64,000 nucleotides of DNA from Dehalococcoidia bacterium (lineage in GTDB: Bacteria > Chloroflexota > Dehalococcoidia > Lucifugimonadales > CATOSD01): the NCBI GenBank assembly GCA_034421955.1, contig DAOUJZ010000044.1:2310-66309 (forward strand). Reading direction: 5' to 3'. The notes beneath the pieces are model-generated. The model searched no databases, was not told the origin of the DNA, and saw nothing but the letters and a program-made list of their open reading frames with translations. Position 1 is the stretch's first letter, and each line of letters begins with the position of its first letter. The translations under genes were made by a program, and so were the position numbers. Below are positions 13,880-54,237 of the stretch, in pieces.

Positions 13880-14746
13880 TCAGCCGCCCACCTGTTCCTT
13901 GAAGCGGCGGATGGCGTCGATGTGGTCGGCGGGCGTGGACAGCCCGGCGTTCATGGTGTTGACCGATATGTGCGTCGCGCCCAGTTCTCGCCAGCTTTCG
14001 ACGGCGGCGGCCCAATCGTCGGGGGAGCCGCGACCTATCGACACCCAGCTCTCGATGCCGATGGAGTCGGGGTCGCGGCCGGCGGCGCTCGTCTGCTCGC
14101 GCATGTCGTCTATGAGCGCGCGGCCCTCATCGTCGGGCGGGAACAGCGGGAACCAGCCGTCGCCCATGCGCGCGATGCGGCTGATGGTCTGGGGCGCGCG
14201 GCCTCCGAACCACACGGGTATGGGGCGCTGAACGGGCAGCGGGTTGATGCCGGCGTCGGTGATCTTGTGCCAGCGGCCCTCGAACGTGACAAGCTCCTCG
14301 GTCCAGAGGCGGCGCATCAGCTCGATCTGCTCCTCGGAGCGCATGCCCCTGTCACCGAAATTCTCGCCCAGCGCCTCGTACTCCACCGCGTTCCAGCCCA
14401 CTCCGATGCCCAGGCGCAGCCGTCCGCCGCTCAGCACGTCCACCGCGGCGGTCTGCTTGGCGACGAGCGCGGTCTGGCGCTGGGGCAGGATGATGACGCC
14501 GGTGACGAGCTCGATGCGCTCGGTGACGCCGGCGAGGTAGCCGAACAGGACGAACGGCTCGTGGAACTGGTCGGTGTGGCGGTAGGCGCCGCTCCAGCCG
14601 GGGCGGCTGTCGGCGTTCGCGCCGAGCACGTGGTCGAACGCGAGCAGGTGGTTGTAGCCGAGCGACTCGGCGGCTTGCGCGTACTCCTTGACGGCTGCGG
14701 GGTCGGAGGTTATCTCGGTCTGGGGGAAGACTACGCCTAGTTTCAT
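13880..14746 (-). CDS. LLM-class (luciferase-like) F420-dependent oxidoreductase
   Basis: I set the start at MKLGVVFPQ (ATG 14746). The patterns ...GYNHLLAFDHV..., IILPQRQTALVAKQTAAVDVLSGGRLRLGIGVGW and ...WFGG are typical of LLM/F420 enzymes. Confidence 0.8.
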   Translation of the reverse strand: MKLGVVFPQTEITSDPAAVKEYAQAAESLGYNHLLAFDHVLGANADSRPGWSGAYRHTDQFHEPFVLFGYLAGVTERIELVTGVIILPQRQTALVAKQTAAVDVLSGGRLRLGIGVGWNAVEYEALGENFGDRGMRSEEQIELMRRLWTEELVTFEGRWHKITDAGINPLPVQRPIPVWFGGRAPQTISRIARMGDGWFPLFPPDDEGRALIDDMREQTSAAGRDPDSIGIESWVSIGRGSPDDWAAAVESWRELGATHISVNTMNAGLSTPADHIDAIRRFKEQVGG

Positions 14747-15169
14747 GGTGGGGGACTCCTTTACTTGTGCAACACTCTCAGCCACACTCAGAAGCGGTTC
14801 GAATGTAACCGTCCCGTGGTGGCTGAGGGACAGTGTACTACAAGGGGCTGGGCGCCGGAGGGCCAGGCAGTTGGACAGAGAATCAGGCCCTCAGTCCTTG
14901 AAAATGAACTCCCTGTGATAGGCCAGGAACTCAGGATCAGGCGAGAACTTCTCGGGAAGGTCGATCTGCTGCCCGTGGTGGCGGCCTATGGCTTCTGAGA
15001 AATACCTGTCGAACCTCAAGGTTGGGGCCGAGTGGACGGTAGATGGCAACGTATTCGAGATGTGGCTAGAGGCTTTGTAAACCCGACTAGGGCGTGTTCA
15101 CACTAACAGTGCGTCGAATATTAGAGCCACCGTGATGAATCCTAATCGGAATGAAAAAAGCCCTGTGAA

Positions 15170-15895
15170 TCAGTCCAAGAGTGCTCGCGTTGCAATCTCA
15201 ATTTGCTCGACGAATGACGCCTCATGGCGCAGCTGTTCATCAATGTCCTTATGGCGAGGACTGTCGCTGACTATGTGTATGCTCGCCGCTTGCACACCCG
15301 ATCGATTTGCCACCGCGTAAAGACACGCAGTCTCAAGATCAATGGCGTAGTAGCCATCTCTCGCGAAGGATTCAACCATGACATCGTTCTCGAGCATGAG
15401 AGTATCGATGCTCACTATGGGCCCTACAGAGTATGTTGCGCTGCAGCGATCTAGGTTGCCGCAAAGTTTCGACATGAGCGATTCTGATGAACGGGCCAAC
15501 CCGTTGTTCGGTGAGTAGCTTCGTGTGCAGCCGTCTAAACCATTTGCACTCGACGGCACCAGATAGCTACCGACCCCTAAATCTTCAGCGACGCCTCCAA
15601 CATAGCCACAAGCAATGATTTTCTTCACTCCCAGAAGCGCAGCGACTTCTGTGTACATTGCCACAATCGGCGCGCCGAAAAGCGGTCGGCAGAAGGTGAG
15701 TGGGTTGCCCTTGAATCGCCCCCTGAAGAACACTCCCGATGACTCTATTCCCTCGAAGATGGCAGTGAATTGGTCCTCCTGAAACAGGTCCGGATTCCCA
15801 AACAGCATGAGCATTTCCGGCTCCAGCGAAAGGCCATCGTCTCCCTTGGAGAGCCAGTTCACGGCAACTTGCCTAATGTGTTCCTGCCAATCCAT
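15170..15895 (-). CDS. Nucleoside phosphorylase-family protein (PNP_UDP_1-like)
   Basis: 241 aa. The pattern ...FGAPIVAMYTEVAALLGVKKIIACGYVGGV...GSYLVPSSA...VSIDTLMLE...YAIDLETACLYAVA resembles purine/uridine phosphorylases. It lies in a visibly AT-richer segment. Confidence 0.55.
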   Translation of the reverse strand: MDWQEHIRQVAVNWLSKGDDGLSLEPEMLMLFGNPDLFQEDQFTAIFEGIESSGVFFRGRFKGNPLTFCRPLFGAPIVAMYTEVAALLGVKKIIACGYVGGVAEDLGVGSYLVPSSANGLDGCTRSYSPNNGLARSSESLMSKLCGNLDRCSATYSVGPIVSIDTLMLENDVMVESFARDGYYAIDLETACLYAVANRSGVQAASIHIVSDSPRHKDIDEQLRHEASFVEQIEIATRALLD

Positions 15896-18818: not shown

Positions 18819-18895
18819 GGCGCATTCGTCTAGTGGCCTAGGACACCGCCCTCTCAAGGCGGAGATCAGGGGTTCGAATCCCCTATGCGCTACCA
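18819..18895 (+). tRNA. tRNA-Glu (anticodon CTC), CCA encoded
   Basis: GGCGCATTCGTCTAGTGGCCTAGGACACCGCCCTCTCAAGGCGGAGATCAGGGGTTCGAATCCCCTATGCGCTACCA. Anticodon arm is CCGCC-CTCTCAA-GGCGG and T-arm AGGGG-TTCGAAT-CCCCT. The D-region is like E. coli tRNA-Glu. Confidence 0.85.
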
Positions 18896-20499
18896 CCGTT
18901 TACTGTAGACAGAACCGGCTTGGGGATGGCGACGTCTTCGGCATTCATCCCGCCTATCCCGCTGTCCTGAGGCATCGGTATCGAGTACCGCACCTTGGCC
19001 TCGCCGGGGGCCACCACTATCTCCTTCACGAACGACTGGATGAACGACCTTCGCTCAGTTAGCTCGCTCTCGTTCAGCCACACGCTCATGTCCTTGGCGA
19101 ACGCCGTGATGGTCTCCACGTCGTCCAGCCGGACCCTACGCTCGGAGAGCATCGCCTTCGCCTCACGCGCAGAGTCCTGTAGCTTTCGCTCCCGCTCCCT
19201 GTGCTCTCGGATGCGCGGCGCTATGTCCGTGATGTCCAACTCGGTGGTCTCGATCGCACGGTAGAGCCTGTCCAGCCACCGCCGCACGTCCGCAAGCTCA
19301 CCCTCGATGGACTCCAGTTTTCTTCGTTGCTCCCGCGCGACGCCGTCCATCTCCTCGTCAACCAGCCTCACAAGTTCCCTGATATTGCTCTCGGTCAGGA
19401 TCGTGGAACGTATCTTTCCGACCACTAGCCTCTCGAATCGCCTGGCGTTAAGCCGTGGGGTCTTGCACGCTCCCTTTCCGTGCTTCAGGGCCGACTGGCA
19501 CACGTAGTACGAGAACCTGCCGCTCTTGGCGTCCTGGCCGGTGAGCGCTCTTCCACAGCTCTTGCAACTGACCAGTCCGCTGAGCAGGTAGGAGCTCGCC
19601 ACACGCCTGGGGTGGGCTCTGGACGGTGCCCTGGACCTGAGCAGTTCCGAGACTCGCTCGAACTGAGACTTGGAGACGATTCCTGGGAAGGCGTCTTCCA
19701 CCCTCACCGGAGGGGCCTTGTCCTTTGCCAAGGTTCCCCACACGAGCGTTCCCTTGTAGGCCTCGTTCGTCAGCATCTTATGAACCACGGTCTTCGACCA
19801 GCGCTTCCCGCCGGGACTCGCGATGCCCTCTGAGTTAAACTCCTTGGTAATGTCGAGAATGCTCTTGCCCGACTCGGCCATGCGAAACATCCGCTGCACC
19901 ACCACCGACGTACCCGGCTCTATCTCCAGCCTGGGCCGCTTCTTAGCGCCGTCTTGCACGTGCACCTTCCTGTAGCCGTAGGGGGCGCTCGGCGTTATCC
20001 AGAAGCCGCGAGAGGCCGCTTCCCGCATACCCCGAACGACTTCTTGCGCGAGATTCTCACTGTAGAACTCGTCCACGCTCTCTATGATGGCCTCCATGAG
20101 CTTGCCTGTTGGTGTGTCGTCGGCGTGCTCGGTGATGGAGACGACGCGAATGCCCTTGCGCCGCAGCATCGACTTGAAGGCGACCGCATGCTCGCGTTTT
20201 CTGGTGAACCGAGAGAACTTCCATACCAGAATGACGTTAAAGGGTGCCTCGTGACGACTCGCCTCTTCTATCATCTTGCGGAACTGTGGCCTGTCTGCAA
20301 TACGGCCACTCTCGGCTTCGTCCACGAACTCTCGGGCTACGGAATAGCCGTGGGCATTGGCGTAGTCCTTGAGCGCCCTCAACTGTGCCGATACGGACAG
20401 ATCCACGTCTTGCTTGTCGCTGGATACCCTGGCGTAGAGGGCGGCAGGGGTGTAGTCGTAACTATTTTTCATCTTCTTCTCCTGATTCATCCTGGCCAT
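18883..20499 (-). CDS. Large serine recombinase (integrase)
   Basis: 538 aa. ALYARVSSDKQ carries the catalytic Ser of the resolvase domain. It also has a recombinase domain, a zinc ribbon (CKSCGRAL...YYVCQS) and a C-terminal coiled coil. Its TAG stop (18883-18885) lies inside the tRNA-Glu acceptor 3' strand. Confidence 0.9.
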   Translation of the reverse strand: MARMNQEKKMKNSYDYTPAALYARVSSDKQDVDLSVSAQLRALKDYANAHGYSVAREFVDEAESGRIADRPQFRKMIEEASRHEAPFNVILVWKFSRFTRKREHAVAFKSMLRRKGIRVVSITEHADDTPTGKLMEAIIESVDEFYSENLAQEVVRGMREAASRGFWITPSAPYGYRKVHVQDGAKKRPRLEIEPGTSVVVQRMFRMAESGKSILDITKEFNSEGIASPGGKRWSKTVVHKMLTNEAYKGTLVWGTLAKDKAPPVRVEDAFPGIVSKSQFERVSELLRSRAPSRAHPRRVASSYLLSGLVSCKSCGRALTGQDAKSGRFSYYVCQSALKHGKGACKTPRLNARRFERLVVGKIRSTILTESNIRELVRLVDEEMDGVAREQRRKLESIEGELADVRRWLDRLYRAIETTELDITDIAPRIREHRERERKLQDSAREAKAMLSERRVRLDDVETITAFAKDMSVWLNESELTERRSFIQSFVKEIVVAPGEAKVRYSIPMPQDSGIGGMNAEDVAIPKPVLSTVNGGSA

Positions 20500-42645: not shown

Positions 42646-43014
42646 ATGACCAACGCAACGGGATCGACAGTTACCTGGCAGGACGCACACAGCGAGATCC
42701 GCGGGCACATGCTGATGACGAAGGAACTGGGGGACACGATACCGGCTCTCAACGCCAACGACAACGTCGGGAATCTCGACGACGTGCTCGTCCCCGTGAA
42801 GCTGTTCAGCCCATACACCGGCTGGACCTGGTACGTCACCGAGTGGGATCCGGCGACCGGGACCTGCTTCGGACTCGTGGAGGGTTACGAGACCGAGTTC
42901 GGCTACTTCGATCTGACCGAGCTTGCCGAAGTCACCGTGTTCGGCGCCGTGCCCGCGGTGGAGCGGGACCTGTACTGGGAGCCGAAGACCCTCGGAGAGC
43001 TCAGGGGGAGGTAA
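42646..43014 (+). CDS. DUF2958-domain protein, copy 1
   Basis: 122 aa. LGDTIPALNANDN...VKLFSPYTGWTWYVTEWDPATGTCFGLVEGYETEFGYFDLTELAEV...VERDLYWEPKTL is the classic DUF2958 pattern. Confidence 0.75.
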   Translation: MTNATGSTVTWQDAHSEIRGHMLMTKELGDTIPALNANDNVGNLDDVLVPVKLFSPYTGWTWYVTEWDPATGTCFGLVEGYETEFGYFDLTELAEVTVFGAVPAVERDLYWEPKTLGELRGR

Positions 43015-44270: not shown

Positions 44271-44915
44271 ATGAACGCGACACACCCCATCGACCCCGAC
44301 GATCTCTACACCATCTCCGCGGGCGGCTTCAACGCCACCGCGGACGCCTTCGCCCGTGACGACCGCACCGACGGCCTCTGGTTCGTCTCCATGGTCGGCT
44401 CGCAGACCGCGCTCAAGGCCATCTGGGCGTCGTTGCTCAAGCAGCCGCCGGACACCGCGCACATCATCCGCGGCGCCGACGGCATGGCGCTGTCCGGCGG
44501 CTACCAACGGTGCGTGGTGCCACACGAGACGATGGGCACCTGGACGACGAAGATATCCAGGCTGCCGGTCTCGGGCGGATGGCACGCCCTGGTCTACACG
44601 AAGACCGCGGAGTACGGCTACGAGAGAAACTCCTTCCTGCTGCTCGCGCAGTCGGAGGACGAGGCCCCGGCGCTGCACCACCGGTTCCTGGACCGGCGAA
44701 GCCCGCTGCCCCTGCACGGCTCCTGGGCCGGATGGCTCTGGGAGAGGGGCCTGAGCGAGGGGGAGATAGTCCCCCTGCAGTCGGTCGGGGTTTCCGCCTA
44801 CAGGTGCTCCCCCAAGGCCGACAAGCTCCGTGAGGACCTCTCCGACGCCGTGGCGGTGGGCAGGCTCACACTGCCCAGGGAGGCGTCCGGGGCGGTGGTA
44901 GGGGCGACGTCATGA
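44271..44915 (+). CDS. Hypothetical protein
   Basis: 214 aa with protein-like composition and no recognisable motif. The stop overlaps the next start (ATGA). Confidence 0.5.
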   Translation: MNATHPIDPDDLYTISAGGFNATADAFARDDRTDGLWFVSMVGSQTALKAIWASLLKQPPDTAHIIRGADGMALSGGYQRCVVPHETMGTWTTKISRLPVSGGWHALVYTKTAEYGYERNSFLLLAQSEDEAPALHHRFLDRRSPLPLHGSWAGWLWERGLSEGEIVPLQSVGVSAYRCSPKADKLREDLSDAVAVGRLTLPREASGAVVGATS

Positions 44916-45397
44916 TCGACTACCGCTATGACGACGGCGGCCGGGAGGCGGCGGGATACCGGGGCAAGACGGGCGACTGCGTCGTCCGCGCCATCGCCAT
45001 CTGCGCCCGCGAGGACTACAAGGCCGTCTACGCGACGATGGCCGAGCACATGAAGCACAACGGCTACGCCGCCAGCGGCAACGCCTACGCCACACGGGAG
45101 CGCAACCGCAAAGCGCCCCGCCGCAGGGGTCAGCTCACCGCCCGCCGCGTGCAGGACCGCGTCCTTGAAGCCTACGGCTTCAGGAAGGTCCGCCTGCCGG
45201 CGGGAGAGCGACCCACGTTCACGGAGGCGCACCACCGGTTCGGCGACTGCATCGTCAGCACGACCAAGCACGTGGCCGCCATCGTGGACGGCGCCCTCCG
45301 AGACACCTTCGACGGCCGCACCTACGAGTGGGACTTCGAGACGCGCGACCGCAAGGCCCAGTCCGTATGGGTGCCACGCCAGACGACGGAAGAGTAA
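44912..45397 (+). CDS. Hypothetical protein (possible Cys-His hydrolase fold)
   Basis: 161 aa. GDCVVRAIAI near the N-terminus and KHVAAIVDG...DTFD near the C-terminus are reminiscent of a papain-like Cys/His/Asp arrangement. This is speculative. Confidence 0.4.
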   Translation: MIDYRYDDGGREAAGYRGKTGDCVVRAIAICAREDYKAVYATMAEHMKHNGYAASGNAYATRERNRKAPRRRGQLTARRVQDRVLEAYGFRKVRLPAGERPTFTEAHHRFGDCIVSTTKHVAAIVDGALRDTFDGRTYEWDFETRDRKAQSVWVPRQTTEE

Positions 45398-46558: not shown

Positions 46559-46855
46559 ATGCAGACGATGATGGTCATGGAACCCTGCTGCCGGTGCGGG
46601 CAGCCCATCGCCCCTGGCGAACCGGCCATGCAGACCGCCTCGGTTGACCTGGACGAGTACGGCAGGGCCGTGTCCTCACCGGTGAAGTCCTGCCACCTGA
46701 GCGGGCGCTGCTACGAGGAGCACAGGCGCCCTGAAAGCCGCCTAGGCTACGCGACCAAGCGCCTCGACGCTTGCAGGGCTTACCGGCAAGTCGTCTTGCC
46801 TGTATCACGTCCCGGTTTGGATGGCAATGTCAAGCGAGAGGAGAAGAGTCAGTGA
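46559..46855 (+). CDS. Small Cys-rich hypothetical protein
   Basis: 98 aa. It has CCRCG near the N-terminus plus additional Cys/His residues. GGAGAAGAAG RBS. Confidence 0.4.
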   Translation: MQTMMVMEPCCRCGQPIAPGEPAMQTASVDLDEYGRAVSSPVKSCHLSGRCYEEHRRPESRLGYATKRLDACRAYRQVVLPVSRPGLDGNVKREEKSQ

Positions 46856-47414: not shown

Positions 47415-49766
47415 ATGAACCTCGGAGGATTCATAGATACTTTCAAGGACGCCATCGCCCGGCGGGTGGTGGAGTCCTACCCGCCGCTCTACCGGCCCTC
47501 GGAGAACGGCGGCACGCTCCCCCGCCTGCTTCGGCGGCCCCTCGGAGCGCAGGCCGACGCCATCAGGGGCGCGGCCCTCTCGCTTCAGGCCCACCGGGGC
47601 ACCACCGTCGTCGGCGAGATGGGAACGGGCAAGACCTTCATCGGGGCCGCCGCCGCGCACATGGCGGGCTTCCAGCGGGTGCTCGTCATTTGCCCGCCGC
47701 ACCTGGTGCGGAAGTGGAAGCGGGAAGTGGAGGAGACGGTGCCCCTGGCCCGGGCCGTCATCGTCACCTCCATCACCGACCTGGAGAAGCTCAGGCTCTC
47801 CATCGGCTCCGGCCCCCTCTTCGCGGTAATGAGCAGGGAGCGGGCCAAGCTGTCCTACCGCTGGACGGCCGCCGTCATCTACCGGTGGGCCACGTCCAAG
47901 GGCAGGCTCATCAGGGAGAAGGCGACCGGGGAGCCCTTCAAGGTTCCCTGCTGCCCGACCTGCACGGCGCAGGTCGTGGACAAGGACGGGGTGCCCCTGA
48001 CGGACAAGGTGCTGAACCGCAGGAAGCACGTCTGCGTGGACTGCGGCTCACCCCTGTGGCAGGCCGACAGGTCCGGTCCCGCCCGCTACCCACTCAGCGA
48101 CTACGTGAAGCACCACATGCCGGGCTTCTTCGACCTGCTCATCGGGGACGAGGTGCATGAGTTCAAGGCCCGCGGCTCGGCCCAGGGCATCGCCGCGGGA
48201 GTCCTCGCCGACGCCTGCGGCAAGTCCCTCAGCCTGACCGGGACCCTCCTCGGCGGCTACGCCTCCACCATCTTCCATCTCCTCTACAGGTTCAGCCCGG
48301 AGATTCGCACGGAGTTCGGGCGCTCCGACGAGGGGCGGTGGATCAAGCGGTACGGCTTCGAGGAGCACTCCATCGGCAAGAACGACGACGACGCCCTGGA
48401 GGATGGGCGCAACAGCCGCCGCCGCAAGTTCCGCAAGGTGGTCAGGGAGAGGCCGGGCCTCGTGCCCTCGGCGCTGTTCCACATCATCGGCAACACGGTG
48501 TTCCTGCGGCTCTCCGACGTGGCCTCGGGCCTGCCCGACTACGACGAGCAGATCCTCCTGTCCTCGATGGACTCGGAGGAGGACGCCACCGGCTACTCCC
48601 AGCGCAGCGCCTACAACACCGTGTTCGAGGAACTGAAGAGGGAACTGTCCAAGGCGCTCAAGGCCGGCTCCAAGCGGCTGCTGGCGACCTACCTCCAAAC
48701 CCTGCTGGCCTACCCGGACGGCTGCACGAAGGGTGAGTCGGTGTTCGACCCCCGGAGCGGCGACCTTATCGTGCAGGTGCCACCGCTGTCGGAGGAGCGG
48801 CTCTACCCCAAGGAGCAGGCGCTGGTGGACCTGGTGGCCGCCGAGCGGCTGGCGGGGCGCAGGGTGCTGGTCTACGTCACCCACACGGGGACGCGGGACA
48901 TCACCGGCCGCATGGACGACATACTCACCCGGCACGGGTTCCGGGTGGCCGTGATGAAGGCCGAAGCAGTGGCTCCCGACAGGCGGGAGGCGTGGGTGGC
49001 CGACAGGGTGGCGAAGGGGCTGGACGTGCTCATCTGCCATCCCCGGCTGGTGCAGACGGGCCTCGACCTCATCGACTTCCCGACGATTTGCTGGTACGAG
49101 ACCGACTACTCGGTCTACGTGATGCGGCAGGCTTCCCGCCGGTCGTGGCGCATCGGGCAGACCCGCCCGGTGAAGGTGGTGTTCATGTCCTACCGGAACA
49201 CCCTGCAGGCCGACGCCCTGAAGCTCGTCGCCAAGAAGCTGCAAAGCTCCCTGGCCGTCGAGGGCGAGCTGCCGGAGGACGGGCTGGCCGTCTACGGCGA
49301 CGACGGGGACGCCCTGATGATGGCCTTGGCCCGAAAGATCGTGAGCGGCGACGAGGAGGACGCCGACGACGAGACGGTGGAGGAGGTCTTCGCCCAGGCC
49401 AGAGACGCCGAGGCCAGCGCCGAGGAGCTGCTGGTGGACGAGGGATGGGAGGCCGTCGAGTTCGAGCCGGAGACCATAGCGGTCAACGGCAACGGGACCG
49501 ACGGACACCACGCCAACGGCCACGACGACCTCCTCGGGCCGACGGTCAAGCTCGTACCGAGCACGGCCCAGACCTCTAACGGCAACGGGGCTAACAGACA
49601 CCACGACGAGGCTGAGGAGCCGCAGCAGTCGCTGTTCTCCTGGGCCGAGTTCCTGGCCGAGCCGGTCAAGCCGAAGCGCCGCAACGGGAAGCCCCAGCCC
49701 GCCTCCATGTCCATGTTCGAGTGGGCAATGGAGCAGGAGAGGGAGACGGTCGGCGCGGGACGCTAG
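47415..49766 (+). CDS. SNF2-family helicase with inserted zinc-ribbon
   Basis: I set the start at ATG 47415. Walker A is GEMGTGKT, DEAH-like motif LLIGDEVHEF, and motif VI QASRRSWRIGQTRPV. The insert is CCPTC...CVDCGSPLW, and the C-terminal tail is acidic. Confidence 0.8.
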   Translation: MNLGGFIDTFKDAIARRVVESYPPLYRPSENGGTLPRLLRRPLGAQADAIRGAALSLQAHRGTTVVGEMGTGKTFIGAAAAHMAGFQRVLVICPPHLVRKWKREVEETVPLARAVIVTSITDLEKLRLSIGSGPLFAVMSRERAKLSYRWTAAVIYRWATSKGRLIREKATGEPFKVPCCPTCTAQVVDKDGVPLTDKVLNRRKHVCVDCGSPLWQADRSGPARYPLSDYVKHHMPGFFDLLIGDEVHEFKARGSAQGIAAGVLADACGKSLSLTGTLLGGYASTIFHLLYRFSPEIRTEFGRSDEGRWIKRYGFEEHSIGKNDDDALEDGRNSRRRKFRKVVRERPGLVPSALFHIIGNTVFLRLSDVASGLPDYDEQILLSSMDSEEDATGYSQRSAYNTVFEELKRELSKALKAGSKRLLATYLQTLLAYPDGCTKGESVFDPRSGDLIVQVPPLSEERLYPKEQALVDLVAAERLAGRRVLVYVTHTGTRDITGRMDDILTRHGFRVAVMKAEAVAPDRREAWVADRVAKGLDVLICHPRLVQTGLDLIDFPTICWYETDYSVYVMRQASRRSWRIGQTRPVKVVFMSYRNTLQADALKLVAKKLQSSLAVEGELPEDGLAVYGDDGDALMMALARKIVSGDEEDADDETVEEVFAQARDAEASAEELLVDEGWEAVEFEPETIAVNGNGTDGHHANGHDDLLGPTVKLVPSTAQTSNGNGANRHHDEAEEPQQSLFSWAEFLAEPVKPKRRNGKPQPASMSMFEWAMEQERETVGAGR

Positions 49767-49860: not shown

Positions 49861-50058
49861 ATGGCACGCGTGTTTGTGTACGACGACAGGGAGTTCCCGG
49901 ACCCCGACCCCCAGATGACCGTCGAGCAGGTGAAGGGAACGCTCGCCGACTTCTACGGCGAGATCGCCAACGCCTCGGTCAAGGAGACCAAGCGGGGCGA
50001 GGACACCGTCTACGAGTTCCAGCGGCGGGTGGGCACCAAGGGGGCCTTCACCCGGTAA
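49861..50058 (+). CDS. PRTRC system protein C (ubiquitin-like)
   Basis: 65 aa starting at MARVFVYDD (GGAAAGGAG RBS). RVFVYDDREFPDPDPQMTVEQVKGTLADFYGEIANASV...DTVYEFQRRVGTKG matches the PRTRC_C pattern, including the C-terminal G(T)KG. Confidence 0.7.
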   Translation: MARVFVYDDREFPDPDPQMTVEQVKGTLADFYGEIANASVKETKRGEDTVYEFQRRVGTKGAFTR

Positions 50059-50069
50059 GGAGGCTTCCG

Positions 50070-50300
50070 ATGGACACCCGAACCTTCGCGGGTCTGCTGG
50101 CGGCCTCGCCGCCGGTGGACCTGCGCATCATCGAGCTCACGGCGGAGCTCACACGGCCCGACGGCACCCTCGACCTGGACGCCGCGGCGGCACGGCAAAA
50201 GGACGTGGAAGCGGCCTGCGCCCAGGCGCAGGACTACGCCTCGACCACGGGGCGGCTCAAGGAGGCGCTGCGGTGGCGACTGCGGCCCCGACGCTCCTGA
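50070..50300 (+). CDS. Small hypothetical protein inside the PRTRC cassette
   Basis: 76 aa with an AAGGAGG RBS. Translation is MDTRTFAGLLAASPPVDLRIIELTAELTRPDGTLDLDAAAARQKDVEAACAQ... I could not equate it with PRTRC protein E. Confidence 0.4.
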   Translation: MDTRTFAGLLAASPPVDLRIIELTAELTRPDGTLDLDAAAARQKDVEAACAQAQDYASTTGRLKEALRWRLRPRRS

Positions 50301-51175
50301 GCGGCCTATCCCAACTGCTCCTGCGGCGTCCGCCGTCGCTGCGGGAGCTGGTGACCATCGTCGGGTACGCCGACGACTACGCATGGTTCACGGAGCTGGT
50401 GCGCCGCCTCTTCCCCGACGGGGCGGAGGAGGCGCTCTCGGCCCCCGACGTGCGCACCAGGGTGGAGCGCTTCGCCAACCTGTTCGCAGGGAAGCACTTC
50501 CCCCTCTACATGCCGGTGATCGAGTACTGGATGGAATGGGAGGGGGAGGAGCCTCCCTGGAGCTGGATGCGGAGGGGCATCCCCTTCGACCTGATGGGCT
50601 TCGGCTACGAAGGTCTCCACGAGCTGTGGAACGGCTACCGGGACGGCATCTCGGCCCTGCTCCTGCTGGCCAGACCCCCTGACTCTCTCTACGGGGAGTC
50701 CGACGAGATACGGACGGCCTGGCTGGAGTCGGCCGCCGAGCGCATCCCGCAAGAGACCCTGGAGAGGATTCCCCAGAGCGGCATACCCGTCGAGGCCCTC
50801 ACCGAGGCGGTGAAGGACACCCCGTTCGAGGGGACGGCCAAGGCCGCCTCCTGGGTCTTCGCCGAGACGGGCAACTTCTTCCTCGATAACTGCTACGAGG
50901 ACGGGGCGTTTGATGGGTTCTGCGACCCCTGGGAGGACGAGATCATCGCCGAGGGGACGGAAGAGTGGCGCAAGGCCAGCGCCCTGATGGACTCGGTGTT
51001 CACCCTGGCCGACTGGCTGGAGGAGGACCTCCCCGGCCGCTTCGCCGAGATGCTCGACTTTGTGCTGCCGCGAGTGCCCGAACAAGAACAAGGAAAGGAG
51101 GCTAATGACCATGACGACCGACATGGAGAAGACCGAGTGGTCCCTGCCGGGACCGGCGGACATGCCCGCGGATAA
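50273..51175 (+). CDS. PRTRC-associated protein in the position of protein F
   Basis: 300 aa. GTG 50273 has an AAGGAGG RBS. The assignment is by gene order only (C - F - B - A - ThiF). It overlaps the next gene by 71 nt. Confidence 0.35.
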   Translation: MATAAPTLLSGLSQLLLRRPPSLRELVTIVGYADDYAWFTELVRRLFPDGAEEALSAPDVRTRVERFANLFAGKHFPLYMPVIEYWMEWEGEEPPWSWMRRGIPFDLMGFGYEGLHELWNGYRDGISALLLLARPPDSLYGESDEIRTAWLESAAERIPQETLERIPQSGIPVEALTEAVKDTPFEGTAKAASWVFAETGNFFLDNCYEDGAFDGFCDPWEDEIIAEGTEEWRKASALMDSVFTLADWLEEDLPGRFAEMLDFVLPRVPEQEQGKEANDHDDRHGEDRVVPAGTGGHARG

Positions 51176-51821
51176 GCTGAACCTCCAACTGGAGGTCTAC
51201 GAGGAGACCCTGCTGCTGCGGGGCTTCGAGGACGAGTCCGTCTGGGTCAGGACCGTCTCGGCGGACGAGATCGCCAACGTGTTCACCCAGCACCTGGGCT
51301 TCTCCTCGGGGCTCTTGCCCCAGGACGCCCTCTGGTGGAACCAGGGCGAGACCGGGCAGGTGGTGGCCCTCTGGCGGCCGCCCCAGGTCTGGCCCGTGGC
51401 CCTGCAACGGGAGGCGTTCAAGCCGCCCGCCCGGCTCCGGCTTCCCATGCCGGGGCTGGTCTTCGTCTGCTCGCCGGCACGGGCGCCCTGGGTCTACGCG
51501 GCGCCGGAGCGTCCCACGGACCCCGAGCAGCTACTCTACCGCGCCCCCGCCTTCAACGTCTTCAGGGACGGGCGGGTCTGCCCCGGAAGCCACCGGTTCC
51601 CCGAGGAGACAGCACAGATACCGGAGTCCTTCTTCCGGTCCTTCTTCTCCATGACCGGGGACTCGCGGGAGCGTTCGAGAAAGCACCCCGACAACCTGCA
51701 CGTGCTATGGGAGGAGCTGGATGGAAAGACTGAGTACCCGGTTGAGGACCTTGTTCCCCAGTGCACGGTGGCCCAGGCCATCGCGGCCAGCCAAGGGAGA
51801 CGGGGCTATGGCTACCGCTAG
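51105..51821 (+). CDS. PRTRC system protein B
   Basis: I set the start at ATG 51105 (GGAAAGGAGG RBS). LPMPGLVFVCSPARAPWVYAA...LYRAPAFNVFRDGRVCPGSHRFP...ESFFRSFFSMTGD matches the PRTRC_B pattern. Confidence 0.6.
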   Translation: MTMTTDMEKTEWSLPGPADMPADKLNLQLEVYEETLLLRGFEDESVWVRTVSADEIANVFTQHLGFSSGLLPQDALWWNQGETGQVVALWRPPQVWPVALQREAFKPPARLRLPMPGLVFVCSPARAPWVYAAPERPTDPEQLLYRAPAFNVFRDGRVCPGSHRFPEETAQIPESFFRSFFSMTGDSRERSRKHPDNLHVLWEELDGKTEYPVEDLVPQCTVAQAIAASQGRRGYGYR

Positions 51822-52488
51822 CGAGACGCCGCCGGTCGGCTACCTCTTCAATCACAAGGACGGGCTGAGCGGAGCGCAAGGCATCGGCTACGACTACGTT
51901 CTCGGAGCGGGCGGGCTCTTCGTCCAGTCCGAGAGCGCCCACCTGACGGCGCGGATTCCGGTCGCCCCCTGCGAGGTGCGCGGCCTCGCTCCCGTTGCCG
52001 AGAAGGTGGAGCTGGCCCACGGCCCCATCCCGTCCCGGCTGTTCGAGCTGGGGCTGGGCTGGTTTCAAGACGACCCGGACACCGAGCGGTTCTTCGCCGT
52101 GCGCTGGGACGGGCGCTCCTACCGGCTGGTGGTGCCCGAACAGGAAGGGACGGCCACGCGCCTCACCTACCGGCCCCCGGCAGGGGTGGTGGCCGAGTTC
52201 CACTCCCACGGACGCTCCCGCACCTTCTTCTCGGCCATAGATAACAAGGACGAGCAGGGCTTCCGCGTGTACGGCGTCGTGGGACGCCTCGATGCCGACC
52301 GGCCCGAGCTGAGCCTCCGGGTCGGCGTCTATGGCCACTTCGCCCCGGTGGAGTGGCCGCAGGTCTTCGACGGGCCGGAGGCGTGCGTCCGGTTCATCGG
52401 CGAAGACATTGATCTCACAGACAAGGAGGTAATCGAAGAATGCCCTACCACCTGGACAACGCGTTCCTGCTGGACAACCCCTGGATAA
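51808..52488 (+). CDS. PRTRC system protein A (JAB/MPN-like)
   Basis: I set the start at ATG 51808. VVAEFHSHGRSRTFFSAIDNKDEQGFRVYGVVG shows the HxH...S..D JAMM-like motif. It sits before ThiF, as in PRTRC cassettes. Confidence 0.6.
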   Translation: MATASETPPVGYLFNHKDGLSGAQGIGYDYVLGAGGLFVQSESAHLTARIPVAPCEVRGLAPVAEKVELAHGPIPSRLFELGLGWFQDDPDTERFFAVRWDGRSYRLVVPEQEGTATRLTYRPPAGVVAEFHSHGRSRTFFSAIDNKDEQGFRVYGVVGRLDADRPELSLRVGVYGHFAPVEWPQVFDGPEACVRFIGEDIDLTDKEVIEECPTTWTTRSCWTTPG

Positions 52489-53246
52489 CCGTGGTCGGCT
52501 GCGGCGGGACCGGCGGCTTCGTCGCCGAGGGCCTCTGCCGCCTCTTCCAGGGACGGGAGGCCACCATCGTCCTGGTCGACCACGACCGGGTGGAGCCCCA
52601 CAACCTGCTGCGCCAGAACTTCTACGCCGGGGACGTGGGAAGGTTCAAGAGCGAGGCCCTGGCCGACCGGCTGACCAAAGCCTACCGGCGTGCCATCGGA
52701 TACTCGGTCTACCCCTTTCGGGAGTTCGACGACGACTCCCGACCGAACAGGCACGGCTACCCCGGCCTCATCGACTACGGCGAGAGTCTCATCATCGGCT
52801 GCGCCGACAACGCCCTCGCACGGAAGGCAATGGCCGAGTGCCTGCCGGGCCACCCGGCCCGCTGGCTCATCGACGCGGGCAACGACACCAACTGGGGACA
52901 GGTCCTCGTGGGCAACGTCTCCGGCAGGGTGGACTGGGAGGAGCCGCCCTTCGAGGGCGAGACCTGCTACCTGGCCCCCGCGCCCACGCTCCAGCGGCCC
53001 GACCTCCTGACGGCCGTGTCAACCAGGCCGCCCGACGTGGACTGTGCGGCGGCCCTCGACCTCACCGACCAGGACCCGACCATCAACCAGATGATGGCGT
53101 CGCTGGTGCTACAGGTTGTTCGCCGGATGGTGGCGGGCACCTGCCCCTTCATGGCCCTGTACCTGGACATGGACCTGGGAACGGTCACGCCCACCTACGT
53201 CACCCCGGAGGCGGTGGAGCGGACGGTGGGGACCCACGTCGAGTGA
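52440..53246 (+). CDS. PRTRC system ThiF-family (E1-like) protein
   Basis: 268 aa with an AAGGAGG RBS. ITVVGCGGTGGFVAEGLCRL...LVDHDRVEPHNLLRQNFYAGDVGRFKSEALADRL shows the ThiF/MoeB/E1 nucleotide-binding motif. Confidence 0.8.
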   Translation: MPYHLDNAFLLDNPWITVVGCGGTGGFVAEGLCRLFQGREATIVLVDHDRVEPHNLLRQNFYAGDVGRFKSEALADRLTKAYRRAIGYSVYPFREFDDDSRPNRHGYPGLIDYGESLIIGCADNALARKAMAECLPGHPARWLIDAGNDTNWGQVLVGNVSGRVDWEEPPFEGETCYLAPAPTLQRPDLLTAVSTRPPDVDCAAALDLTDQDPTINQMMASLVLQVVRRMVAGTCPFMALYLDMDLGTVTPTYVTPEAVERTVGTHVE

Positions 53247-53291: not shown

Positions 53292-53681
53292 ATGTCTGAC
53301 AAGAACGGAACCACCACGATCATCTGGCAGGACAACCACAGCGGGCTCCGCAGGCACAAGCTGATGACGAAGGAGTTGGGGGACACCATCCCCGCGCTCT
53401 ACGCCAACGAGAACGTCAAAGATTACGACTCCGTCCTCGCTCACGTGAAGCTGTTCAGCCCCTACAGCAACTGGACCTGGTACGTCACCGAGTGGGAGGC
53501 GGAGACCGGCCTCTGCTTCGGCCTCGTCGAGGGGTTCGAGACGGAGCTGGGCTACTTCAGCCTCGACGAGCTGGCGGAGGTCACCGTGTTCGGCGGCGTC
53601 CCCGCCGTGGAGCGCGACCTCTACTGGAAGCCGCAGACCCTGGGCGAGATAAAGAGACAGGCGTCGGGGATCGCCGCCTAG
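53292..53681 (+). CDS. DUF2958-domain protein, copy 2
   Basis: I set the start at ATG 53292 (GGAGAGGAG RBS). It is about 80% similar by eye to 42646..43014 (VKLFSPYSNWTWYVTEWEAETGLCFGLVEGFETELGYFSLDELAEV...VERDLYWKPQTL). Confidence 0.75.
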   Translation: MSDKNGTTTIIWQDNHSGLRRHKLMTKELGDTIPALYANENVKDYDSVLAHVKLFSPYSNWTWYVTEWEAETGLCFGLVEGFETELGYFSLDELAEVTVFGGVPAVERDLYWKPQTLGEIKRQASGIAA

Positions 53682-53733
53682 CCAACTGCGCCCACGAGCG
53701 CAGCCACGGAATCGAACAATGAAAGGAGAGACC

Positions 53734-54237
53734 ATGCCTGACGAAGTTGGAACGGAAGCGACCCGCTCGGATGGCCCGAGCGCCGACGACAGCCTCTTCG
53801 GCGATGCGCCGGACGAGACGACTGCCGCAGACCCGGTGACGGAGGAAGCCACACAGGATACCCCGCAGGACGGGCAGGACGCCGGCGACGAGACGGCACA
53901 GGACGGCAGGGACTCCGGCGACTCAGGGGAGGAGACACCCCAATCGGAGGACCTGAAGGTCGTCGTCTCCATCAAGGGCAGTAGGGCCACTATCGGGGTG
54001 CAGCGGCCCTCGGTGGACCCGCACATCGAGACCTTCGAGGGCCATGACCTGTCCGGTCTGGCCGAAGAGGTCCCGGCGGTGACCGAGAGGGCGAAGGCCA
54101 GGTGGGAGGAGACACCCAAGCACCCGGCCTACGAGAGACCCGCTCCCCCGGCGCGGCGTCGGAACCGTCGCCAGCAGGAGGCAACCGCCGAGGCTGAGAC
54201 CGAACAGCAGCAGCAACAGACGCTGAGGCTGTTCTAG
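53734..54237 (+). CDS. Acidic hypothetical protein
   Basis: 167 aa from MPDEV (AAAGGAGAG RBS). It has a D/E/T/Q-rich disordered N-half, then VVVSIKGSRATIGVQRPSVDPHIETFEG..., then a basic/Q-rich tail. Confidence 0.5.
   Translation: MPDEVGTEATRSDGPSADDSLFGDAPDETTAADPVTEEATQDTPQDGQDAGDETAQDGRDSGDSGEETPQSEDLKVVVSIKGSRATIGVQRPSVDPHIETFEGHDLSGLAEEVPAVTERAKARWEETPKHPAYERPAPPARRRNRRQQEATAEAETEQQQQQTLRLF

Follow-up and report, generated by a model that had tools for sequence, protein, structure and literature searches.

A ParB-less relative of the PRTRC cassette in an integrative element of sponge-associated Dehalococcoidia: a candidate module for ubiquitin-like conjugation

What does a mobile element of Dehalococcoidia gain from the parts of a ubiquitin-like conjugation system? 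This question is raised by six tightly packed open reading frames (ORFs) at positions 49861-53246 of a 64,000-nt stretch of Dehalococcoidia DNA (hereafter the window), all on the + strand and all within an element that resembles integrative and conjugative elements (ICEs). They encode, in this order, a ubiquitin-like protein (Ubl; C), a 76-aa protein (X76), a protein in the F slot (F'), an E2-like protein (B), a JAMM/JAB metallopeptidase (A) and a ThiF-type E1. A preliminary description of the sequence had reported this content and order, and both are borne out by the ORFs and by searches with hidden Markov models (HMMs). Cassettes of the PRTRC type, to which the genes are related, are common on plasmids, ICEs and phages, and a study of 2006 predicted that they conjugate ubiquitin-like proteins in bacteria (PMC1779556). 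On balance we think it probable, though far from certain, that the cassette is a working module for the conjugation and deconjugation of a Ubl, that it represents a ParB-less sister branch of PRTRC in the backbone of an ICE, and that it serves the element by which it is carried.

Tagging core and accessory proteins

Each of the four core proteins (C, B, A and ThiF) has the corresponding PRTRC model as its top match in NCBIfam, in a scan that covered 18 window proteins. This places the cassette in the wider PRTRC group, as had been proposed. The stricter claim of the preliminary description, that the locus matches PRTRC as the TIGRFAM models define it, did not hold up. Only C exceeds its curated cut-off (TIGR03738, 50.0 versus 45.95 bits), and the last position of that model coincides with G61. 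In contrast, B (TIGR03737, 66.6 versus 131.45 bits), A (TIGR03735, 52.3 versus 101.8 bits) and ThiF (TIGR03736, 89.5 versus 144.75 bits) stay below theirs, with E values of 1e-14 to 1e-25, and F, E and ParB were unmatched. In Pfam, where the cut-off is 25 bits for PF14454, PF14460 and PF14464, C matches PF14454 (Prok_Ub; 56.6 bits, E 2e-15) and B matches PF14460 (Prok-E2_D; 64.7 bits), while A falls just short with PF14464 (Prok-JAB; 22.3 bits). ThiF matches PF00899 with 50.1 bits. By these sequence scores, B, A and ThiF are relatives of the PRTRC proteins, not equivalogs.

To these scores can be added the conservation of individual residues. We aligned 73-79 distinct close sequences per protein with six distant cassettes, the PRTRC cassette of Burkholderia and a cassette from a Leptolyngbya plasmid; close or related loci are, throughout, the 80 best of 191 tblastn matches (78-91% identity in B). 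The C-terminus of C reads ...RRVGTKG61, followed by the 4-aa tail AFTR. Among 73 distinct close sequences and in the distant cassettes GTKG is invariant, whereas the tails vary from 2 to 12 aa. In the classical cassettes, C ends in ...AGAKG-SHA (Burkholderia) or ...AAGTKG (Aromatoleum), and in Pseudomonas putida, where the PRTRC cassette has no JAB gene, it ends in ...GDRG and is tail-less. This pattern of a constant GTKG and a variable tail, including the tail-less Ubl of the JAB-less cassette, fits a JAMM peptidase that exposes the glycine for conjugation. A further variant is found on the plasmid of Leptolyngbya sp. BL0902 (L005:6219-6635), whose 138-aa Ubl consists of a beta-grasp part up to GTKG and 80 residues beyond it, which form a helical extension. 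The make-up of this Ubl suggests a natural pro-protein that requires cleavage.

B has a predicted catalytic cysteine, Cys157, in FNVFRDGRVC157PGSH161, where it is preceded by FN and not by HPN. This is the only cysteine of B that is invariant across the close family, the distant cassettes, Burkholderia PRTRC-B and the Leptolyngbya protein. His161 is kept within its own clade only, and the Burkholderia and Leptolyngbya proteins lack it; the helix histidine of Burkholderia B (FTHP) is, in turn, absent from the window protein. A contains the complete E...HxHx7Sx2D motif (E93, H132, H134, S142 and D145), which is kept in all aligned relatives, and in its N-terminal region R58 and W85 are invariant within the clade. 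The nucleotide and Arg-finger motifs of the E1 (G20xGGTGG, D47xD..N55..R58Q59, K70 and D123) are invariant over the close family, the distant cassettes and classical PRTRC, and two cysteines are candidates for a thioester: C176, in the crossover loop, and the universal C202.

With these parts, tagging might proceed as follows. The JAMM peptidase (A) would trim the 65-aa pro-Ubl after Gly61, removing AFTR, and the ThiF-type E1 would adenylate the exposed carboxylate of Gly61, probably with a thioester on C176 or C202. The Ubl would be handed to Cys157 of the E2-like B, which would attach it to target lysines, on one protein or several. The selection or presentation of these targets may fall to F', X76 and the E-like protein described below, with its TLRLF peptide, and the JAMM peptidase may also reverse the modification. 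In this way the module could act for the mobile element on proteins of DNA replication, repair or host barriers during transfer or establishment. The branch is a compact and heavily sampled version of PRTRC, in which hundreds of natural variants pinpoint GTKG as the likely processing site, Cys157 as the E2 cysteine, and the three accessory proteins. Its value lies in this deep natural sampling and these defined residues, not in rarity.

An E1 and a beta-grasp protein could also serve a purpose other than protein tagging. They might form a sulfur-carrier or peptide-adenylating pair, similar to ThiS/ThiF, MoaD/MoeB or MccB-like systems, and yield a cofactor or a modified peptide. In line with this, among solved sequences the E1 comes closest to MccB and a ThiF-type protein (E about 2e-5), ThiF and MoeB models are among its weaker NCBIfam matches, and the trimmed modifier would end in a single glycine. 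However, the similarity to these solved sequences is confined to a ~70-residue nucleotide-binding region, the operon has kept a JAMM peptidase and an E2-fold protein with a universally invariant cysteine, and rhodanese, ThiG/ThiH, MoaE and export genes are absent. A role outside protein tagging therefore seems very improbable to us.

The core is accompanied by three accessory proteins without a family. The first of these, X76, had been listed as a mere unknown, but is a conserved core member of this cassette variant. It has no match in Pfam, NCBIfam, PHROGs or PADLOC. Its ORF is intact in 79 of the 80 related loci and its variability by codon position (0.095/0.063/0.182) is like that of its neighbours; X76 is a real gene. 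Alignable homologues occupy the same slot in the distant loci L087-L092, and X76 is retained in cassettes where F' is down to 26-44% identity. We considered whether X76 is the detached equivalent of the 80-aa extension of the Leptolyngbya Ubl, with which it is collinear by eye, but with hhalign E values of 0.016-0.09 we do not claim this. A split of PRTRC-F (364-379 aa) into X76 and F' (76+300 aa) was rejected, as profile similarity is absent.

F' belongs to a sizeable family (502 cluster representatives at E<=1e-3), again without matches in Pfam, NCBIfam, PHROGs or PADLOC. An AlphaFold2 model based on 45 diverse sequences consists entirely of helices, with a predicted local distance difference test score (pLDDT) of 88 and a predicted template modelling score (pTM) of 0.80. 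Foldseek found no match for this fold in the PDB (best E 2.3) or BFVD (best E 0.79). In the same 45 sequences, the positions conserved at 90% or more are occupied only by P, F, G and W. Because the all-alpha model is confident and invariant polar residues are missing, F' looks like a candidate non-catalytic scaffold or substrate adaptor rather than an enzyme. The Leptolyngbya plasmid encodes a homologue of F' in its own F slot (hhalign 95%, E 3e-8). No relation to classical PRTRC-F was detected: neither F' nor any of its 45 diverse homologues matches TIGR03742 (F' at E<=10; control Burkholderia F, 184.5 bits), and the F' profile reaches only E 0.64 in hhalign against three classical PRTRC-F proteins.

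The third accessory protein moves the boundary of the cassette, since a seventh conserved member, here called E-like, lies beyond the six-gene block of the preliminary description. Its product has an acidic N-terminal region, a conserved core (LKVVVSIKG..TIGVQ...DPHIE.F...RA.A.WE..P.HP.Y.RP), a basic or Q-rich tail and the C-terminal peptide TLRLF. The gene is found in 75 of the 80 close loci, and 73 of the 75 products end in TLRLF or LKLF. Alignable homologues lie directly 3' of the E1 in the distant cassettes L088-L092, with the ends RLF, KLL, QLF and RLL. The label refers to architecture only, because an HMM or hhalign link to PRTRC-E is lacking. Neither E-like nor X76 matches TIGR03741 (PRTRC-E; control Burkholderia E, 105 bits), hhalign of E-like with PRTRC-E gave E 0.19-0.67, and the idea of a true PRTRC-E homologue was rejected on these grounds. 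What the two proteins have in common is a short core rich in beta structure, a tail of low complexity and, at the C-terminus, a hydrophobic tip.

Mimicry of the C-terminal tip of SSB was considered for the E-like tail and rejected, since in the SSBs of the element acidic residues are followed by a terminal D-x-S-P-F or S-L-F, which TLRLF does not resemble. The DinB protein of the host (L099) has QLTLAGF close to its C-terminus, and by this motif resemblance only, the E-like tip may be a sliding-clamp-binding peptide. A bolder version of the pathway would direct tagging to the replisome. Through (Q)TLRLF, the sliding clamp of the host or another replication hub would be bound by the E-like protein, the charged E2 would be recruited there by F' and X76, and clamp-bound or fork proteins would receive the Ubl. 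We regard this version as quite improbable. If it were true, PCNA ubiquitination would have an analogue in bacterial mobile elements, the SNF2 helicase next door would take a place like that of Rad5/HLTF, and the cassette would steer the replication, repair or recombination of the incoming element.

ParB and the carrying element

Classical PRTRC always names a ParB partner, and the three classical plasmids (of Burkholderia, Aromatoleum and P. putida) show the order ParB-E-C-F-B-(A)-ThiF. In contrast, the preliminary description had seen no ParB in the ICE, but had pointed to the hypothetical genes at 44271..45397 as a place where a ParB-like gene might be identified. Our searches agree with the first statement and found no sequence similarity to ParB at the second site. 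When the whole 3.4-Mb genome was searched in six frames with PF02195 (ParB_N) and TIGR03734, the cassette's own contig gave no match, and the sole match was on contig C62 (TIGR03734, 56.4 bits versus a cut-off of 278.6). The two candidates, 44271-44915 and 44912-45397, have no similarity to ParB in Pfam, NCBIfam, PHROGs or a PDB profile search. An AlphaFold2 model of the product of 44271-44915 (15 sequences) had a pLDDT of 52, too poor for a meaningful Foldseek comparison with the ParB fold. Across 25 related complete genomes, no ParB_N match comes closer to the cassette than 10 kb, and in 13 of them the whole genome is without one. A nearby ParB is absent also from the Leptolyngbya cassette (within 9 kb) and from the six distant cassettes. 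Judging by this absence across loci, the Ubl/E2/JAB/E1 core does not require ParB as a partner.

The two candidate genes have features of their own. The product of 44271-44915 is a 214-aa protein without a family or PDB profile match, and its median identity of 84% in 70 loci is above that of most of the operon. The 161-aa gene at 44912-45397 is optional (19 of 80 loci) and matches phrog_3754 (E 6e-9). With an invariant Cys23 (GDC) and His120 (TKH), its product could be a small cysteine peptidase or amidase.

The ParB results bear on the proposal of Iyer et al. (2006; PMC1779556) that such cassettes are stability or addiction modules tied to partition. E1 and E2 would then act against the JAB protein on a cellular target, so that losing the element becomes harmful or segregation is regulated, and in the present branch the ParB partner would have been replaced or lost. 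ParB is indeed part of all three plasmid cassettes, and the element persists as multiple copies per genome. Yet the branch itself has no ParB, also in the 25 complete genomes, no toxin-like component was recognised, and an integrated ICE does not need active partition. An addiction module is, in our view, improbable.

The element itself encodes a large serine recombinase (18883-20499), Replic_Relax, a TrwB/TraG-type coupling protein, a VirB4/TraC ATPase, TrbL/VirB6 and a DnaG-type primase. A long + strand operon leads through TSCPD, nuclease, SSB, RadC, DUF6094 methyltransferase and SNF2 genes into the cassette, with DUF2958 and E-like at its end. The cassette shares an operon with the primase, SSB, RadC and an orphan DUF6094 methyltransferase, beside genes for type IV secretion, the coupling protein and the relaxase. 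The order TSCPD-nuclease-SSB-RadC-h214-methyltransferase-h98-SNF2, followed by C-X-F'-B-A-E1-DUF2958-E-like, is kept in most of the 80 loci.

In species-representative genomes, B has 191 tblastn relatives. The order Ubl-X-F'-E2-JAB-E1 is thus repeated at 191 or more sites in genomes of sponge-associated Dehalococcoidia, and it is found again on distant phage-like contigs and a plasmid of a cyanobacterium. The best 80 are nearly all from sponge-associated Dehalococcoidia/SAR202 metagenome-assembled genomes (MAGs), several of which have two or three copies, and among metagenome proteins B is represented by 964 clusters at E<=1e-3. The preliminary description had seen an odd copy in a new host lineage. 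Instead, the cassette is a fixed part of the backbone of an abundant ICE family in sponge-associated Dehalococcoidia. Of the 9 genomes of the window's genus, 6 have Prok-E2_D, as do 15 of 61 relatives and 20 of 401 Chloroflexota, a patchy distribution that is typical of a mobile element. Distant cassettes lie in phage-like settings of DNA metabolism (ThyX, NAD-ligase, UvrD, HNH, DUF5131 and integrase). The closest plasmid relatives are cyanobacterial. A related ThiF is encoded by 139 plasmids, of which 63 are typed as conjugative.

A cassette of this kind might be anti-phage defence cargo, with the ICE as a mere carrier. As in Bil, the Ubl would be conjugated to a phage protein and thereby block assembly or replication. 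Mobile elements often bear defence genes, the distribution is patchy, and a preprint on a prophage (see below) suggests variable target recognition. In addition, the parts list (Ubl, E2, JAB and E1) is the same as that of Bil (BilABCD; PMC11601596). To that extent the parallel with Bil and Bub drawn in the preliminary description is sound. It ends there, however: PADLOC has no match for C, X, F', B or A, and fits nothing beyond a generic E1 domain. The E1 has a single domain of 268 aa, unlike the tandem IAD-AAD-CYS E1 of Bil. Moreover, in about 80 loci the cassette occupies a fixed slot in a DNA-processing operon and not a variable cargo site, related cassettes on phage-like contigs are a better fit to an element-serving role, and a preprint from the Corbett laboratory saw no phage protection by related Bub operons. 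We therefore consider defence unlikely.

An element-serving function (establishment, control of replication or repair, or counter-defence) is favoured over anti-phage cargo, because the cassette has a fixed slot in a DNA-processing operon, is carried by ICEs, plasmids and phage-like contigs, is absent from PADLOC and has neighbours of an early or establishment type. The leading regions of plasmids are enriched in SSB and orphan methyltransferases (PMC11541004). Should the module act at establishment on proteins of replication, repair or host barriers, it would be a new route by which mobile DNA manipulates its host.

Several points weigh against a working, element-serving conjugation module. 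B, A and E1 are far under the curated PRTRC cut-offs. The downstream E2 histidine that Iyer et al. described for the related operon type 6d is not at the same place in B, and the thioester site of the E1 is uncertain, because C176 is missing in the classical Burkholderia E1. No oriT was found in the ICE that would place the + strand operon in the leading (first-transferred) region. In keeping with the preliminary description, which had called the function of PRTRC unknown, neither a paper on this function nor an experiment on any PRTRC-type cassette was found in the searched literature. Mobile elements carry defence genes, so a fixed position in the element is also compatible with a defence role. 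Finally, a 2026 preprint reports a PRTRC-B gene as a hotspot of recurrent variation, beside the receptor-binding protein, in a Phocaeicola prophage that also carries a diversity-generating retroelement. Such variation would fit an arms race or a defence-like role.

Gene layout and neighbouring genes

The cassette block reads as one operon, because its genes are coupled by ribosome-binding sites and internal promoter-like or convincing terminator-like sites are missing. An AGGAG-type ribosome-binding site is found 6-10 nt 5' of every cassette start, in agreement with the strong site of its own that had been claimed for each downstream gene. A consensus scan gave no promoter-like site within the block and a single, weak, terminator-like one, which is less than shuffled sequence yields. 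The coordinates are given in Table 1.

Table 1. Genes of the cassette and its neighbours in the window, with E-like genes of distant cassettes (positions of the latter refer to the loci named).
Feature	Position	Strand	Basis
SNF2/ResIII-type helicase	47415..49766	+	PF04851 and PF00271 matches; neighbour, cassette membership unproven
C, pro-form Ubl (PRTRC-C/Prok_Ub), 65 aa	49861..50058	+	TIGR03738, PF14454
X76, small helical protein, 76 aa, ATG start	50070..50300	+	Conserved across loci, coding-type substitution pattern
F', all-alpha F-slot protein, 300 aa, GTG start	50273..51175	+	AlphaFold2 model; no family match
B, E2-like (PRTRC-B/Prok-E2_D), 236 aa	51111..51821	+	PF14460; TIGR03737 below cut-off
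A, JAMM/JAB metallopeptidase (PRTRC-A), 226 aa, JAB-N-like N-terminal region	51808..52488	+	TIGR03735 below cut-off; motif
ThiF-type single-domain E1, 268 aa	52440..53246	+	PF00899; TIGR03736 below cut-off
DUF2958 protein, clade-specific neighbour	53292..53681	+	PF11171, E 5e-11
E-like seventh member	53719..54237	+	Synteny, conserved core, C-terminal TLRLF
E-like genes of distant cassettes	L088:11336-11917, L089:12131-12445, L090:8792-9136, L091:3317-3931, L092:12714-13343		

Four overlaps between consecutive genes, of 28, 71, 14 and 49 nt, had been reported. Those of X/F' (28 nt), B/A (14 nt) and A/E1 (49 nt) stand, and C and X are separated by a gap of 11 nt. The F'/B overlap amounts to 71 nt when B is started at ATG 51105, but to 65 nt from ATG 51111. 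We prefer ATG 51111, which is 9 nt (versus 3 nt) from the GGAGG box at 51097-51101; homologues of B by the hundred, with 236 aa and the N-terminus MTT..., agree with this start. Across the family, the C-to-X gap is 10-14 nt, X and F' overlap by 28 or 25 nt in 75 of 78 loci, B and A by 14 nt in 48 of 76 loci, and A and E1 either overlap by 49 nt (26 loci) or are separated by a small gap (about 40 loci).

In most relatives, F' and B overlap by only 11 nt, with F' ending at a TGA inside ATGACGACTGA. The 65-nt overlap of the window is explained by the loss of this TGA (now ACCGAC), which extended F' by ~18 residues read from the alternative frame of B. The overlaps of 28 and 14 nt are conserved, but long overlaps as a special feature of the cassette were rejected, since those of 65 and 49 nt are lineage-specific and not family-wide. 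They are real in the window, but are ordinary stop-codon drift in a tightly coupled, GC-rich operon. Five candidate Rosetta-stone fusions (P0138, P0165, P0179, P0206 and P0381) look like frameshifted or chimeric gene calls and not like genuine fusions.

As had been described, an SNF2 helicase gene lies directly 5' of C, and one also precedes the classical PRTRC of Burkholderia. An SNF2 gene is syntenic 5' of C in about 70 of the 80 loci, but is not adjacent to the PRTRC of Aromatoleum or P. putida, nor to the distant cassettes. An obligatory partnership was therefore rejected. The DUF2958 gene lies 3' of the E1 in 76 of the 80 close loci and is absent from the distant cassettes. The window has a second DUF2958 gene (42646-43014), whereas most related elements have only the copy after the E1; in two related loci a DUF2958 gene lies between nuclease and SSB. 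Between the methyltransferase and SNF2 genes, 46559-46855 encodes a small Cys-rich protein (CCRCG...C...C..H), found in 62 of the 80 loci and without a family match, which is probably a zinc ribbon. Two loci (L003 and L004) have a tyrosine integrase and a truncated SNF2 remnant 5' of the cassette.

Some Dehalococcoidia genomes contain three diverged copies of the whole element (L012, L031 and L038 in OY760104.1; L033, L072 and L076 in CBDBNU01), with 84-89% identity in B. The ICE family thus appears to be proliferating within sponge symbionts. In a sponge MAG labelled Gammaproteobacteria, short contigs (VXPO01; L032 and L071) contain cassettes that are 78-84% identical to the Dehalococcoidia copies, which reflects either mis-binning or transfer between phyla.

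Comparison with known systems

Classical PRTRC was represented by the three plasmid cassettes, of which that of the Burkholderia contaminans plasmid NZ_CP090639.1 has the order SNF2-ParB-E-C-F-B-A-ThiF. The window cassette has in common with it a beta-grasp Ubl with G[TA]KG, an E2-like B with the same invariant cysteine, a JAMM protein A and a short ThiF-type E1, as well as the relative order C-(F slot)-B-A-ThiF and carriage on conjugative elements. SNF2 is upstream in at least one classical example. The differences are considerable, however. The window cassette lacks ParB, its B, A and ThiF reach about half of their curated cut-offs, its F slot is taken by the undetectably related F', and it has the extra 76-aa gene between C and F'. 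Its E-like gene is 3' of the E1, whereas PRTRC-E is 5' of C and has no detectable sequence similarity to it. None of the 18 scanned window proteins matches PRTRC-D (TIGR03739), a protein that the three classical plasmid cassettes also lack. The JAB-less PRTRC of the P. putida plasmid pNY5709-IMP (L096; 5019-10579) has a plasmid dnaN gene (14389-15498) 4 kb downstream.

A second point of comparison is the operon type 6d of Iyer et al. (2006), which was described as a Ubl with a C-terminal glycine, an alpha-helical protein, an E2-like protein that has the cysteine but not the histidine of HPN, a JAB protein with an N-terminal extension and an E1-like protein (PMC1779556). The window cassette agrees in the glycine of its Ubl, the alpha-helical protein in the corresponding slot, the Cys-bearing E2 without the HPN histidine, the Arg and Trp of JAB-N (R58 and W85) and the rhodanese-less E1. 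In contrast to 6d, the downstream histidine of its E2 is at +4 from the cysteine and is clade-specific. Since F' has no invariant charged residues, it is probably not the uncharacterised enzyme that had been proposed for 6d. The lineages listed for 6d in 2006 did not include Chloroflexota (Genome Biol 7:R60, PMC1779556). As judged from sequence, the cassette belongs to the PRTRC/6d superfamily as a diverged, ParB-less branch.

The closest plasmid relative is found on the plasmid of Leptolyngbya sp. BL0902 (NZ_CP046156.1), with identities of 33% in ThiF, 35% in JAB and 28% in B. Like the window, it has an F-slot protein homologous to F' and no ParB within 9 kb. Its Ubl is fused to the 80-aa extension, where the window has the separate X76. 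Upstream, it encodes a Q/P-rich protein that ends in ...QITLF. Its E-like gene precedes the Ubl, unlike in the window.

With Bil, Bub (6E) and Cap2/Cap3 of the cyclic oligonucleotide-based anti-phage signalling system (CBASS), the cassette has in common a location on mobile elements and the expected steps: trimming and deconjugation by a JAB protein, adenylation by an E1, an E2 intermediate and conjugation through a C-terminal glycine. Yet the cassette is not Bil, Bub or Cap2/Cap3, as the PADLOC and NCBIfam models of these systems do not fit beyond the nucleotide-binding region of the E1. Bil has a tandem-domain IAD-AAD-CYS E1 (PMC11601596), in contrast to the single ThiF domain of the window E1. 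Bub has fusions (Ubl-E2 or E2-E1), the DUF6527 protease BubE and serine E2s, whereas the components in the window are all separate genes and none of the cassette proteins matches DUF6527. Cap2, unlike the window proteins, is an E1-E2 fusion and acts on a CD-NTase. If the element-serving role that we favour is true, this branch would represent a third context of bacterial ubiquitin-like tagging, beside the regulation of CBASS and the defence provided by Bil.

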